64,000 nt of DNA from Escherichia coli (GTDB lineage Bacteria; Pseudomonadota; Gammaproteobacteria; Enterobacterales; Enterobacteriaceae), in NCBI RefSeq assembly GCF_003334305.1, contig NZ_QOWS01000002.1; one strand, written 5' to 3'. This document shows, piece by piece, positions 18,995 to 28,361 of the stretch. Below the pieces are notes generated by a model. It did not search any database, had not been told where the DNA came from, and worked only from the letters and a program-made list of their open reading frames with translations. Numbering within the stretch: the stretch's first letter is position 1; the number at the start of each line of letters is the position of its first letter. The position numbers were made by a program, and so were the translations under genes.

Positions 18995-19900
18995 TTAGCG
19001 GAATTTACGTCGATACTCGCCTGGCGTCATCCCAAAGCGTTGCTTAAATACCGTTGAAAAATGACTCTGGTCAGAAAATCCCCAATGAAAGCCGATGCCT
19101 GCCAGTTTTTCATCATCTGCGGCATGGCGAATCGCATCTGCACAAAAATCGAGACGACGGTTACGAATATATTGCGCGACTACCAAACCTTTATCGGCAA
19201 ACATTCGGTACAAACTACGTACTGACATACCTGTCTCTCCGGCTATCCACTCCGGGCGTAATATCTCTTCGCGAATATTATCGTCTATCAACGTAACCAC
19301 TTTTTGAAACTGACGTTCACGACGAGGTTGAACAGATTCCCGCTGATGAAGTACCGGGCGCAGCAGACACACCATCGCCTGTAGCGCAGCTTCACTTTCT
19401 GTTTCAGAAAGTGCCGGATTATTCATGCTCTCCTGTAACAGGCGATGACTGAGTTGCACCATGGGTAAGTCAGCGTCCAGTCTTTCTGCGCAGACAGGTT
19501 TTTGATGGGGAAAATATTGTTCCAGCAGAGTGCGTGGCAAAAGTAATGAAATCTGTTTAGAAGACTCCTGCCAGTAAAGCGAACAGGGGCGTGAGGCATC
19601 GAGTAACGTAATATCGCCAGCGCCAATCTGCACCTGACGCTCATCCTGCTCCATTATTGCCTGACCACTAAGCTGAAAAACGGTGTAAAACCAGGCATCG
19701 TCGCTGCCTTTTACCTCCTGCCAGGTGCGGGATAAATTCACCCCGCTGGTTGTCACGGTACTCAGCTTTAGTCCTTTGGCAAAATGCGTGTCCAGTACAC
19801 CCGTGTAACGCTCAGTCAGCAGGCGTCCGGTAAAATTTCCGCATACCTGATTGATTTGGGAAAGCCATTGCTGAAACTCATTATCCATTGCGGGGTTCAT
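18995..19900 (-). CDS. feaR: AraC-family activator of tynA/feaB
   Basis: 301 aa; C-terminal AraC HTH (IAGETGMSVRSLYRMF...). Confidence 0.9.
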   Translation of the reverse strand: MNPAMDNEFQQWLSQINQVCGNFTGRLLTERYTGVLDTHFAKGLKLSTVTTSGVNLSRTWQEVKGSDDAWFYTVFQLSGQAIMEQDERQVQIGAGDITLLDASRPCSLYWQESSKQISLLLPRTLLEQYFPHQKPVCAERLDADLPMVQLSHRLLQESMNNPALSETESEAALQAMVCLLRPVLHQRESVQPRRERQFQKVVTLIDDNIREEILRPEWIAGETGMSVRSLYRMFADKGLVVAQYIRNRRLDFCADAIRHAADDEKLAGIGFHWGFSDQSHFSTVFKQRFGMTPGEYRRKFR

Positions 19901-20019
19901 GGCACGTTTTCGCTCTGTGAAATGTATTTTTATTGTTGCATTTGTGTTGCAATAAACGAAGCTAATGAGCCTGACTATAGGAAATAAGTCTTGTCAGGCA
20001 TAGAGACATAAGCGGTTAT

Positions 20020-20092
20020 TGTCACGATTTGCGGAGCTTGTCACAGCTGACAAAGCGAATGTCACAGCGAAAAAAGTGACTTTTCTTGTCGC
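20020..20092 (+). promoter_or_regulatory. phased TGTCAC repeats in feaB promoter (putative FeaR site)
   Basis: TGTCAC at 20020, 20040, 20060 (exact 20-bp phasing), inverted GTGAC at 20076 and TGTCGC at 20087, upstream of feaB. Confidence 0.4.
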
Positions 20093-20135
20093 TGCGTACA
20101 CTGAAATCACACTGGGTAAATAATAAGGAAAAGTG

Positions 20136-21635
20136 ATGACAGAGCCGCATGTAGCAGTATTAAGCCAGGTCCAACAGTTTCTCGATCGTCAACACGGTCT
20201 TTATATTGATGGTCGTCCTGGCCCCGCACAAAGTGAAAAACGGTTGGCGATCTTTGATCCGGCCACCGGGCAAGAAATTGCGTCTACTGCTGATGCCAAC
20301 GAAGCGGATGTAGATAACGCAGTCATGTCTGCCTGGCGGGCCTTTGTCTCGCGTCGCTGGGCCGGGCGATTACCCGCAGAGCGTGAACGTATTCTGCTAC
20401 GTTTTGCCGATCTGGTGGAACAGCACAGTGAGGAGCTGGCGCAACTGGAAACCCTGGAGCAAGGCAAGTCAATTGCCATTTCCCGTGCTTTTGAAGTGGG
20501 CTGTACGCTGAACTGGATGCGTTATACCGCCGGGTTAACGACCAAAATCGCGGGTAAAACGCTGGACTTGTCGATTCTCTTACCCCAGGGGGCGCGTTAT
20601 CAGGCCTGGACGCGTAAAGAGCCGGTTGGCGTAGTGGCGGGAATTGTGCCATGGAACTTTCCGTTGATGATTGGTATGTGGAAGGTGATGCCAGCACTGG
20701 CAGCAGGCTGTTCAATCGTGATTAAGCCTTCGGAAACCACGCCACTGACGATGTTGCGCGTGGCGGAACTGGCCAGCGAGGCTGGTATCCCTGATGGCGT
20801 TTTTAATGTCGTCACCGGGTCAGGTGCTGTATGCGGCGCGGCCCTGACGTCACATCCTCATGTTGCGAAAATCAGTTTTACCGGTTCAACCGCGACGGGA
20901 AAAGGTATTGCCAGAACTGCTGCTGATCACTTAACGCGTGTAACGCTGGAACTGGGCGGTAAAAACCCGGCAATTGTATTAAAAGATGCTGATCCGCAAT
21001 GGGTTATTGAAGGCTTGATGACCGGAAGCTTCCTGAATCAAGGGCAAGTATGCGCCGCCAGTTCGCGAATTTATATTGAAGCGCCGTTGTTTGACACGCT
21101 GGTTAGTGGATTTGAGCAGGCGGTAAAATCGTTGCAAGTGGGACCGGGGATGTCACCTGTTGCACAGATTAACCCTTTGGTTTCTCGTGCGCACTGCGAC
21201 AAAGTGTGTTCATTCCTCGACGATGCGCAGGCACAGCAAGCAGAGCTGATTCGCGGGTCGAATGGACCAGCCGGAGAGGGGTATTATGTTGCGCCAACGC
21301 TGGTGGTAAATCCCGATGCTAAATTGCGCTTAACTCGTGAAGAGGTGTTTGGTCCGGTGGTAAACCTGGTGCGAGTAGCGGATGGAGAAGAGGCGTTACA
21401 ACTGGCAAACGACACGGAATATGGCTTAACTGCCAGTGTCTGGACGCAAAATCTCTCCCAGGCTCTGGAATATAGCGATCGCTTACAGGCAGGGACGGTG
21501 TGGGTAAACAGCCATACCTTAATTGACGCTAACTTACCGTTTGGTGGGATGAAGCAGTCAGGAACGGGCCGTGATTTTGGCCCCGACTGGCTGGACGGTT
21601 GGTGTGAAACTAAGTCGGTGTGTGTACGGTATTAA
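20136..21635 (+). CDS. feaB: phenylacetaldehyde dehydrogenase
   Basis: ALDH motifs VPWNFP, ELGGKNP, catalytic Cys in [10 protein letters not shown]. Confidence 0.9.
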
Positions 21636-21692: not shown

Positions 21693-23966
21693 TCACTTAT
21701 CTTTCTTCAGCGCCCCTAGCGTTGGCGTTTCGTCAAAGAAGTTCCATGGTTTAAGCAGAGTATGTACCCATTCGGTCGGCATAATCGGCCACTCTTCGGC
21801 GCGGGCCACATGTGTGGTGCCGGTGGTCATCCAGACAACGGCGTCGGTGTTGTCCAGCGACTCGTTATCTTTACTGTATTGTCCAAGACCGGTGTCATGA
21901 GTAGAACGGTTCGGATATTTGCCTTCCGGGAAACGCTCGCCAGGATGATAACGCGTTACCCAAAGCTGCTTGTCCATAAAGCTTAAACGATGATAGATCC
22001 ACTCGTCCGGCGCGAACTGGGCACCTTTTGCTACCGGGTGAGTACCACCTGCATAAGGAATAATTTGATAGGAAACTGGATTGCCCATGCGGTTCTCTTT
22101 GTTCGGGTTACTCAACAGACGAATCGTGCCCGGATCAAACTTCTGCGCGGCATCCTGTTCATTGCCGATGTTGTACTGATTAACTTGCATGGTACTGGTG
22201 CGTGGGCCACCGGCAGTATTCGGTTTTACCACTGGGTCCATCGCCACCAGGCTGTTATTCTCGCCATCTACATCCAGATCGAGGCGGAAATTATAAATAT
22301 GTTGGTGTGTAGTACCCACGATATTGTGATCGATAAGCGTGCCGTAGCGCGTGTCATCTTTCGCCGTCTCATCGTGCATGGTTTTCGCTTTAACACCTTT
22401 CACCGCTTCGATGCCCGTAGCACCGGCATCAATGCCAATAGTGCCGTTTTCATGGAAGATCCAGTCAAAAATGTAGTCATAGTTACCCACTGTACTGATC
22501 CAGCGCACCACTAACTCCCGGCGTTCGGTACTGACGTTGGGCTGGCCCATTTCCTGATGCTTATACTCCGGCCCGGCATAACGTTCAAATACCGCGATAG
22601 CGCGAGGGATCTCCATCGGCACGCCAGTGTAGTCGGCGATGGTTTCATTAAGGAGCACTGCGTTAGACGGGGCATCTTTACCACGAGCAATTGGTGAGGT
22701 TAGCGTGCCCATACCGTAGTCACCAGAGTCCAGATACGCTTTAAAGTACCAGCCAATATCAGGATCACCGTAAGGCACAATCATGCCGCCGAGAGAACCT
22801 TCGTACATGACTTTGCGTTTGGTGCCATTGTCGTTATAAGTCACGGTGGAGATCATCGGCCCGACGCGAGAGTTCATGCTGAGGTGAAAATCCCAGTTCC
22901 GCCAGTGAATCATATCGCCAGTAATGGTGTAATTTTTACCTTCAGGCTCAATGATTTGCATAGGCTTAACTGCCGGAGCAACGCGGTCACGGCTATCAAA
23001 TGGGCGTGCGGTCATTGGCACCGGAACTACCGGACCTTCTTCAATCTTAACGATTTTTTTCTGTTCTAAATCAACGACCGCCACCAGGTTTTCGATGGGA
23101 TGTGCCCAGTAGTTGCCATCACCGACATCAAGATAGCTGATGACTTTGAGCAACCGGGCATCTTGTTTCAGGCCATCTTTACCATCGAAATAACCTACGG
23201 TCAGCGGCGTGGTAATCACTTTTTTCGCATCAGTAATACCGCGTTTCTTCACGGCAGCGGCAAATTCTTCACTGTTGTTAATAATGTTCTGCACACTGGC
23301 GAAATCATCCAGCAACACCATACCGTGGGCGTCTTTAATGGGTTGCCAGGAGAGCAGTTTGTTGTTTTGCAGATCCACCACCGCTTCGATGATATGTTTG
23401 CCGTCGAGCATAATGACGTCGGCTTTGCGCGGCTGGTCAACCGGTTTGTTTTCCAGCGCAAACGCCCAGACAGCTTCTTTATCTGGCGGTAGCAGGGAGA
23501 TCTCAGTAAAACGGGTATTGGGTTTGAAGTCCGCGGAAGCTTTAACAATTTCAACGGCCTGTTTAATTTCGTCCGCAGTTAGCGCATTAAGTGGGTGAGG
23601 GCGCTTTTCTACCTGAAAGGTTTGATCCAGACCGGACTGGAAAACATCGTTAATAAAGGTGTCAGAAACCCAGGCCTTATTGTCTTTCATCACTACCGGC
23701 ACTTGCAGTGCCAGAGGTTGACCATTAACAATTGCTGTTTGCGCACCAGGCTTCACTTTCACGTACGCGCCATCTTTAATCAGGGTAAAGATCTGGGCGT
23801 AGTCGTCCCACTGCACATCGGCACCAAATTCTTTAAGCGTTTCATCCATTGGCACCATATGCGCTTCACCACCGTGGGCAAATACCGGCGCTTGCCAGGC
23901 GAAACTTAAGGCGACTGCCAACGCCAGGGTTGTTTTACGGGCAGAATACAGAGAGGGGCTTCCCAT
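21693..23966 (-). CDS. tynA: periplasmic copper/topaquinone amine oxidase
   Basis: Signal peptide; TPQ precursor motif NYDY (TVGNYDYIFDW); His ligands. Confidence 0.9.
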   Translation of the reverse strand: MGSPSLYSARKTTLALAVALSFAWQAPVFAHGGEAHMVPMDETLKEFGADVQWDDYAQIFTLIKDGAYVKVKPGAQTAIVNGQPLALQVPVVMKDNKAWVSDTFINDVFQSGLDQTFQVEKRPHPLNALTADEIKQAVEIVKASADFKPNTRFTEISLLPPDKEAVWAFALENKPVDQPRKADVIMLDGKHIIEAVVDLQNNKLLSWQPIKDAHGMVLLDDFASVQNIINNSEEFAAAVKKRGITDAKKVITTPLTVGYFDGKDGLKQDARLLKVISYLDVGDGNYWAHPIENLVAVVDLEQKKIVKIEEGPVVPVPMTARPFDSRDRVAPAVKPMQIIEPEGKNYTITGDMIHWRNWDFHLSMNSRVGPMISTVTYNDNGTKRKVMYEGSLGGMIVPYGDPDIGWYFKAYLDSGDYGMGTLTSPIARGKDAPSNAVLLNETIADYTGVPMEIPRAIAVFERYAGPEYKHQEMGQPNVSTERRELVVRWISTVGNYDYIFDWIFHENGTIGIDAGATGIEAVKGVKAKTMHDETAKDDTRYGTLIDHNIVGTTHQHIYNFRLDLDVDGENNSLVAMDPVVKPNTAGGPRTSTMQVNQYNIGNEQDAAQKFDPGTIRLLSNPNKENRMGNPVSYQIIPYAGGTHPVAKGAQFAPDEWIYHRLSFMDKQLWVTRYHPGERFPEGKYPNRSTHDTGLGQYSKDNESLDNTDAVVWMTTGTTHVARAEEWPIMPTEWVHTLLKPWNFFDETPTLGALKKDK

Positions 23967-24213
23967 TATTAACCTCGTCAGATGTTGTGTTCTTGTTAGC
24001 AACCGCGCTCTGTGGGCGGTTTAGTCAGGTTCACATTATCAGTACTGATGCAAAGGGGATTGCCTGCACCTGCCAGGTTGTTTGGCAGGTGTGCCAGCTT
24101 TTCATACAGTGGGTGCCCTGAAAATAGATGTACACATCATGCATAATGTGACAACGTCACAAAACTTAGTGAAATAAAAGGGCAACTATTGGCCGTTGCC
24201 CTTCATTCACCGA

Positions 24214-27573: not shown

Positions 27574-28361
27574 TGATGGAATTCATCCTCAGTCATGTAG
27601 AAAAGGGCGTGATGACACTAACGCTCAACCGCCCGGAACGCCTGAACAGTTTTAATGATGAGATGCACGCACAACTGGCAGAGTGCCTGAAACAGGTCGA
27701 GCGCGACGACACTATCCGTTGCCTGTTACTTACAGGTGCCGGGCGCGGATTTTGTGCTGGTCAGGATCTTAACGATCGTAACGTTGATCCCACAGGCCCC
27801 GCACCGGATTTAGGGATGTCAGTTGAACGTTTCTATAACCCACTGGTACGTCGCCTGGCAAAACTGCCAAAACCGGTGATCTGTGCAGTCAATGGCGTGG
27901 CGGCAGGGGCAGGCGCAACACTGGCACTGGGGTGCGACATCGTTATTGCTGCCCGTTCAGCAAAATTCGTCATGGCGTTTAGTAAGTTAGGCTTAATACC
28001 CGATTGCGGTGGAACCTGGTTACTGCCACGCGTTGCTGGGCGAGCGCGCGCCATGGGGCTGGCACTGCTGGGGAATCAACTGAGTGCTGAACAGGCGCAC
28101 GAATGGGGGATGATCTGGCAGGTTGTTGATGATGAAACGCTGGCAGATACCGCGCAACAGCTGGCACGGCATCTGGCGACACAACCGACATTTGGTCTTG
28201 GACTTATCAAGCAAGCGATAAATAGCGCTGAAACCAATACGCTCGATACGCAACTGGATCTGGAACGTGACTATCAGCGACTTGCCGGACGGAGCGCAGA
28301 TTATCGTGAAGGTGTCAGTGCGTTCCTGGCTAAACGCTCACCGCAGTTCACGGGGAAATAG
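27573..28361 (+). CDS. paaG: 1,2-epoxyphenylacetyl-CoA isomerase (crotonase family)
   Basis: 262 aa; start overlaps paaF stop (TAATG). Confidence 0.9.
   Translation: MMEFILSHVEKGVMTLTLNRPERLNSFNDEMHAQLAECLKQVERDDTIRCLLLTGAGRGFCAGQDLNDRNVDPTGPAPDLGMSVERFYNPLVRRLAKLPKPVICAVNGVAAGAGATLALGCDIVIAARSAKFVMAFSKLGLIPDCGGTWLLPRVAGRARAMGLALLGNQLSAEQAHEWGMIWQVVDDETLADTAQQLARHLATQPTFGLGLIKQAINSAETNTLDTQLDLERDYQRLAGRSADYREGVSAFLAKRSPQFTGK

Follow-up and report, generated by a model that had tools for sequence, protein, structure and literature searches.

The intergenic region between the divergent genes feaR and feaB of Escherichia coli contains three copies of the hexamer TGTCAC and several similar words, and the question it raises is how many of them, if any, belong to the binding site of FeaR, the regulator encoded on one side of it. 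The region lies within a stretch of 64,000 nucleotides, here called the window, to whose first letter all coordinates refer unless K-12 is named. An initial annotation had read six hexamers upstream of feaB as one array in helical phase, with TGTCAC recurring at exactly 20 bp, and had taken the array for the site of a multimeric activator of the AraC family.

The three TGTCAC copies do exist on the plus strand, at 20020–20025, 20039–20044 and 20060–20065. Because the middle copy starts at 20039 and not at 20040, as had been claimed, neighbouring copies lie 19 and 21 bp apart and not 20 and 20. Among the accompanying words, GTGAC at 20076 and TGTCGC at 20087 are where they were said to be, and TGTCAG begins at 19992 instead of 19993.

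Results

The feaR–feaB locus

The genes on both sides had been named correctly. By annotation, feaR occupies 18995–19900 on the minus strand and feaB, encoding phenylacetaldehyde dehydrogenase, occupies 20136–21635 on the plus strand with its ATG at 20136, so that the intergenic region is 19901–20135. The gene order is ydbH-ynbE-ydbL-feaR / feaB / tynA / paaZ, where tynA lies on the minus strand at about 21693–23997 and has its promoter beyond 24000. The placement of FeaR among the AraC-family regulators (AraC_binding_2 plus HTH_18) follows from the annotation and from domain matches to PF12833 (residues 219–299, 2.4e-19), PF00165 (9.4e-12) and PF14525 (residues 12–185, 5e-29). FeaR activates both tynA and feaB (PMC4640556), and its effector is the aromatic aldehydes produced by TynA (PMC11542736; PMC5540944).

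Window positions 19867–20167 align without gaps to positions 1447250–1447550 of E. coli K-12 MG1655 (NC_000913.3), K-12 coordinates being window coordinates plus 1,427,383. The single mismatch in this alignment falls within feaR, and therefore the entire feaR–feaB intergenic region is identical to that of K-12 MG1655. A 351-bp query around the intergenic region has a match of at least 95% identity in 3,289 of 5,426 complete E. coli genomes, which makes the feaR–feaB locus accessory at the species level. In strain JNEC-KY203 (NZ_AP045179.1) the single-piece match is limited to window 20002–20200 and the record has a second place, which suggests an insertion or rearrangement near 20002 that splits the intergenic region and parts the feaR promoter from the FeaR sites. 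A Shine-Dalgarno-like block ahead of feaB, TAATAAGGA at 20121–20129 on the plus strand, is conserved in the 12-genus alignment described below. No Rfam match at E ≤ 1 was found in 19700–20400.

Two probable tandem half-sites in the feaB promoter

Two of the TGTCAC copies, those at 20039 and 20060, are very probably the 5′ boxes of two FeaR half-sites arranged in tandem and in the same orientation, as judged from motif matches and from conservation. The distal half-site, TGTCACAGCTGACAAAGCG, would occupy 20039–20057 and the proximal half-site, TGTCACAGCGAAAAAAGTG, 20060–20078, both on the plus strand. Each is assigned on an exact match to TGNCA-N8-AAA, on conservation and on its score with a position weight matrix (PWM). 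The exact matches are TGTCACAGCTGACAAA at 20039–20054 and TGTCACAGCGAAAAAA at 20060–20075, and both point at feaB. Together the two units form a 20-nt direct repeat, 80% identical, with a spacing of 21 bp (two helical turns), and the unit consensus in the feaB promoter is TGTCACAG-N4-mAAAG(C/T)G, of 16–19 nt.

In the abstract of Zeng and Spiro (2013, J Bacteriol 195:5141), TGNCA-N8-AAA is reportedly named as the motif bound by FeaR and as occurring twice in the promoters of tynA and feaB, and we take the units at 20039 and 20060 to be the FeaR operator already described for feaB of E. coli K-12. The two-unit operator is already known, on identical sequence; its attribution to FeaR is correct, and the finding as such is an ordinary one.

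Part of the evidence that sets these two units apart from their surroundings comes from related bacteria. We collected the feaR–feaB intergenic regions of 11 genera or lineages beyond E. coli (two Pseudocitrobacter, one lineage at 76% identity, Pluralibacter, Kluyvera, Enterobacter, Raoultella, Trabulsiella, Scandinavium, Klebsiella oxytoca and ‘Enterobacteriaceae bacterium 89’), whose FeaR proteins are 64–81% identical to that of E. coli. In the alignment both units are kept alongside feaR in 12 genera, E. coli included. The only long conserved block on the feaB side is 20028–20078, where column identity is 0.85–0.92 compared with 0.52–0.62 in the flanks; the mean column identity is 0.88 in the distal unit and 0.90 in the proximal one. 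Invariant across the 12 genera are TGTCACAG in the distal unit and CGAATG.CA and GA.AAAA in the proximal unit.

The tandem arrangement is also rare within the window. The composite pattern TGNCA-N8-AAA-N5-TGNCA-N8-MAA, whose last box was relaxed to MAA after the tynA site had been seen, occurs exactly twice in the 64 kb, once in the feaB promoter and once in the tynA promoter, each time directed toward its gene, compared with 0.02 occurrences expected. Ten of the 12 genera have the composite in their feaB promoter, and the remaining two carry CAA for AAA. When a 19-nt PWM derived from all non-E. coli sites was applied to 127,964 window positions, 20039 ranked first (25.5 bits), 20060 second (21.7 bits) and the distal tynA site eighth, an order that mostly reflects orthologous conservation and not independent recurrence of the motif.

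Counts of repeated words are less telling. TGTCAC is not enriched in the window, with 24 matches compared to 28.9 ± 5.4 expected. Three-copy clusters of a hexamer on the same strand within 46 bp number 11 in the 64-kb window, compared with 2.3 ± 1.6 in first-order Markov simulations; the TGTCAC cluster is unusual but not unique, as genomic sequence is cluster-rich anyway. The 9-mer TGTCACAGC, common to both units at a distance of 21 bp, is one of 8 close 9-mer pairs where 6.5 are expected. Since neither the hexamer triplets nor the 9-mer pairs stand out, repeat statistics alone are weak. It is the near-invariance in 12 genera, together with the recurrence of the composite motif, that lifts the copies at 20039 and 20060 above chance.

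The tynA promoter

The second occurrence of the composite is a predicted FeaR tandem on the minus strand at 24060–24096, assigned on the motif match. It consists of TGGCACACCTGCCAAA (24096–24081) and TGGCAGGTGCAGGCAA (24075–24060), 21 bp apart, and the second of these units has CAA instead of AAA after the N8 spacer. In the tynA promoters of four genera the alignment is confined to the tandem, CTGGCA..CTG.CAAA.AACCTGGCAG..GCAGGCAA, and a downstream tAnnnT; the tandem is the only conserved block of the promoter in these genera, and it has two units only.

A PWM built from feaB sites alone ranked the distal tynA site 68th and the proximal one 1618th, and a PWM built from tynA sites alone ranked the feaB sites 59th and 2027th. 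By sequence comparison, then, the likeness between the feaB and tynA sites is limited to a short degenerate bipartite motif and the 21-bp tandem geometry.

Two further sequences were noted in this part of the window. A near-perfect palindrome, TGTGAC-GTT-GTCACA (TGTGA-N5-TCACA), is found at 24147–24161, upstream of tynA and close to where paaZ ends, with the tynA tandem about 50 bp downstream of it. It resembles a CRP site except that its spacer is 5 bp long and not 6, and it does not align in other genera. In the paa gene cluster, TGGCAAAACTGCCAAA at 27856–27871 is a strong match to a tynA-type unit; it has no tandem partner at 21 bp and is probably a chance match.

Predicted promoter geometry and a model of activation

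A putative -10 element of feaB, TACACT at 20097–20102 on the plus strand (TAsACT in all genera), has a mean column identity of 0.96 amid poorly conserved sequence. At tynA, the candidate -10 is TAATGT at 24033–24038 on the minus strand, with an invariant A at position 2 and an invariant T at position 6. The distance from the first base of the proximal unit to that of the -10-like hexamer is 37 bp in both promoters. A consensus scan of 19800–20250 detected no sigma-70 promoter, and the two -10 hexamers are therefore assigned from their conservation and their common offset. The absence of a consensus sigma-70 promoter is what would be expected of an activator-dependent promoter.

With these -10 hexamers, the feaB transcript would start near 20109 and the tynA transcript near 24026, and the distal and proximal units of feaB would be centred at about -62.5 and -41.5, respectively. 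The -35 position, separated from the putative -10 by a 17-bp spacer, would be taken by AAGTGA (20074–20079, plus strand), which has no resemblance to the consensus and is overlapped by the A-tract end of the proximal unit. A proximal half-site that overlaps or abuts the -35 position in this way would correspond to the geometry of AraC-family activators.

These features are consistent with the following model. With the aromatic aldehyde produced by TynA as its ligand, FeaR would bind as a dimer, occupying the two units from the same side of the DNA, with two helix-turn-helix motifs in each monomer, each of which would read one box. The proximal unit would end at the would-be -35 hexamer and, as feaB itself has no -35 element, FeaR would bring RNA polymerase to the -10 hexamer TACACT at 20097–20102. 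Activation of feaB would thereby follow the class II mode of AraC and XylS. In this model the transcription start, the overlap with the -35 position, the stoichiometry of the dimer and the contact with polymerase are all deduced from the arrangement of the sequence.

A conserved TTGCGR element and the possible role of CRP

The conserved block of the feaB promoter begins some 11 bp ahead of the distal unit, an extension that the model of two half-sites leaves unexplained. It contains an (A/T)TTGCGR element at 20028–20034, between the TGTCAC copy at 20020 and the distal half-site. TTGC (20029–20032) is invariant in the 12 genera, and the block 20026–20038 has an identity of 0.82. No counterpart of TTGCGR was found in the tynA promoters in the four-genus alignment.

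We tentatively suggest that TTGCGR could function as a third contact, sharing with the distal unit its palindromic TGNCA core, either as the left half of a CRP site or as an inverted second box (B-box) of FeaR, although we regard this as a possibility rather than the probable outcome. If it is true, TGTCACAG in the distal unit would be a dual-purpose switch linking the expression of feaR and feaB. In the form with an inverted B-box, FeaR may bind the distal core facing feaR. The minus strand at TTGCGR completes TGACA-N7-CAAA, a FeaR-like unit that shares the distal core, and the PWM score of this inverted site is among the top 0.02–0.5% of positions in all 12 genera, mostly owing to the shared core.

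In the other form, TTGCGR (20029–20034) and the TCACA within TGTCACAG would make up a CRP site, TGCGG-N6-TCACA at 20030–20045, which would add to the FeaR operator and not replace it. We consider this doubtful. The site matches 8 of 10 core positions and is the sole match of this quality in the intergenic region, but matches of equal quality occur in the window at chance frequency (24 compared with 28.7 expected). Its register and sequence are conserved in the 12 genera, two of which have TGCGA and thus 9 of 10 positions, and TGTCACAG in the distal unit is more strictly invariant than the core of the proximal unit, as a dual constraint would predict. On the other hand, a C is invariant in 12 of 12 genera at a position where CRP prefers T, which therefore suggests a different reader. 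The centre of the site, 20037.5, would lie at about -71.5 from the feaB start and about -70.5 from the feaR start, a class I spacing to both, but both starts are themselves predictions. Zeng and Spiro are said to have proposed CRP control of feaR in 2013; no CRP binding data for the region were found in the literature searched. If the CRP site is real, carbon limitation would control the divergent promoters through a site that overlaps the distal FeaR unit.

Other readings of the TGTCAC cluster

Whatever the role of TTGCGR, the tandem of two FeaR half-sites has to be weighed against other readings of the repeats. The reading closest to the initial annotation takes all three TGTCAC copies and the three related hexamers as an array phased at about 20 bp, to which at least three FeaR protomers would bind as a multimer. 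Three exact copies on the same strand within 46 bp invite this interpretation, and a 14-nt repeat, GCGGnnnnTGTCAC, joins 20012–20025 to 20031–20044 in E. coli. Some AraC-family promoters, for example melAB, have more than two sites. We nevertheless consider the array improbable, given spacings of 19 and 21 bp instead of 20 and 20, and given that the tynA promoters manage with just two units.

The copy at 20020–20025 is kept as TGTCAC, TGTCGC or TATCAC in 8 of 12 genera including E. coli. Of the 11 other genera, 4 have the exact TGTCAC; TGTCGC stands in its place in 3 and TATCAC in 1, and the sequence is unrelated in 4 (Kluyvera, Raoultella, Trabulsiella and K. oxytoca), in which both core units are intact. 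In E. coli it reads TGTCA-N8-GGA without an AAA box and lies 19 bp from the distal unit, out of the 21-bp register. Its PWM score as a full site is -5.1 in E. coli, ranges from -3.7 to -32 in the 12 genera and is negative in every one of them. It is probably not a FeaR half-site.

The remaining three words, all recorded on the plus strand, are not conserved. TGTCAG at 19992–19997 is found in 0 of 11 other genera and is replaced by TGCAAG in a divergent E. coli lineage. In the alignment, GTGAC at 20076–20080 appears as an E. coli-specific variant of GCGCG, and TGTCGC at 20087–20092 lies in the promoter spacer, the least conserved part, with a mean column identity of 0.46. All three look like chance hexamers, and we place them outside the FeaR operator, as we do, with less certainty, the copy at 20020. 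Several other candidates also failed to show conservation. These are a hairpin formed by GTCAC (20061) and GTGAC (20076) and a palindrome TTGTCA-CAGC-TGACAA (20038–20053), both specific to E. coli and attributed to chance, and a weak match of 9.0 bits, AGGCATAGAGACATAAGCG at 19996, which lies 43 bp ahead of the distal unit.

As four hexamers fail these tests, the six phased hexamers shrink to two half-site cores and chance look-alikes. What survives of the initial annotation is the attribution to an AraC-family protein and to FeaR, which the copies at 20039 and 20060 bear out as half-site cores. The multimer on six hexamers is not supported, the evidence being in better agreement with a dimer on two half-sites. 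The unit of recognition would be the bipartite TGNCA-N8-AAA of 16–19 nt rather than the hexamer, and the functional periodicity would be the 21 bp between two units rather than 20 bp between three.

A second alternative is that the TGTCAC hexamers are half-sites of PhoB, i.e., a Pho box. The repeat unit of PhoB is indeed TGTCAC or TGTCAT, and both are frequent in its published sites (PMC10294691). PhoB ChIP-seq has a peak at feaR/feaB, with PhoB-dependent repression of feaR (PMC10294691). A Pho box, however, needs a pair of repeats spaced at 11 bp, and all three hexamers lack a partner at that distance; the shared hexamer goes with a periodicity of 11 bp in the Pho box and of 19 and 21 bp in the cluster. 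With a PWM from 58 other published PhoB sites the cluster scores -8.6 to +0.3, compared with 6.8 for the weakest training site. The centre of the ChIP-seq peak, K-12 position 1,447,326, corresponds to window 19943, 77–117 bp away from the hexamers (PMC10294691). The Pho box reading of the cluster is largely refuted by these data, and we regard it as highly improbable.

Equally hard to credit is the view that the entire cluster is a chance repeat without function. The window does contain a fair number of hexamer triplets and close 9-mer pairs, but 20039–20078 is near-invariant across 12 genera amid diverged flanks and the same architecture recurs at tynA. Chance is refuted for the copies at 20039 and 20060 and is still the best reading for the words at 19992, 20076 and 20087.

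The feaR leader and promoter

The PhoB peak falls on a different repeat. At 19933–19951 there is a direct repeat of TGTTGCA with 11-bp phasing, TGTTGCAtttgTGTTGCA (minus strand TGCAACACAAATGCAACA), which is 92–93% conserved in the 12 genera. It also resembles an NsrR half-site. The repeat is centred at 19942.5, exactly at the published centre of the PhoB ChIP-seq peak at window 19943 (PMC10294691), and no other intergenic sequence scores higher with the PWM built on the 58 other PhoB sites, its 8.4 bits comparing with 6.0 for the site called by MEME, TTTCACAGAGCGAAAACG. The conserved repeat at 19933–19951 may be the true PhoB site. It would lie at about +17 to +34 from the predicted feaR start, and a position downstream of the start fits repression of feaR by PhoB.

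The MEME-called sequence, TTTCACAGAGCGAAAACG on the minus strand at 19905–19923, is itself a near-copy of the proximal FeaR unit (TTTCA-N8-AAA) on the feaR strand, a short way ahead of the feaR start codon. It was picked up as inverted repeats I1–I3 and is the published PhoB site (19922–19905; PMC10294691); its conservation does not extend beyond E. coli and the nearest relatives.

On the feaR side, a -10-like TATAGT is found at 19974–19979 on the minus strand, its complement ACTATA being invariant or nearly so in the 12 genera, and it is accompanied by a conserved GAAAGAAG at 19981–19990. This arrangement suggests a feaR start near 19967. There is no recognisable -35 element for feaR, which suggests an activator-dependent feaR promoter.

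Discussion

The operator proposed here is that of E. coli K-12. The feaR–feaB intergenic region of K-12 is identical to that of the window, the feaB and tynA promoters have two TGNCA-N8-AAA units each, and for the units at 20039 and 20060 there is no difference from the K-12 operator. The abstract of Zeng and Spiro from 2013 reportedly does not include the extra hexamers, the TTGCGR element or the 37-bp offset of the -10 hexamer.

The closest parallels are found among other members of the family. At araI1-araI2 of the araBAD promoter, AraC binds as a dimer to two direct-repeat half-sites about 21 bp apart, centre to centre. The half-sites of AraC are bipartite, with two major-groove contacts, and the proximal one overlaps the -35 element. 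FeaR carries the same double helix-turn-helix domain. The half-site sequence differs, however, and the N-terminal domain of FeaR is AraC_binding_2 (PF14525) and not the arabinose-binding cupin; our analysis gave no sign of a distant looping site of the O2 type. XylS at the Pm promoter (TGCA-N6-GGNTA, twice) provides a further comparison: it recognizes two direct repeats at 21 bp, of which the proximal one overlaps the -35, and responds to an aromatic effector. The TGCA-like first box is similar in the two systems, whereas the second box of FeaR is an A-tract and its effector is an aldehyde made by TynA, an enzyme that FeaR itself regulates.

The FeaR operator of feaB and tynA has already been described, and the result has little importance beyond annotation. 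It corrects the anatomy of the site, which would consist of two bipartite units spaced at 21 bp, not of six phased hexamers, with a conserved -10 hexamer at a fixed offset of 37 bp in both promoters. FeaR and the tynA promoter are already in use as a biosensor for aromatic amines and aldehydes (PMC11542736), and the footprint conserved across genera could guide the design of minimal promoters for FeaR biosensors. The TTGCGR element and the Pho-box-like repeat in the feaR leader would be small additions to a promoter region where carbon, nitrogen, phosphate and NO signals come together.
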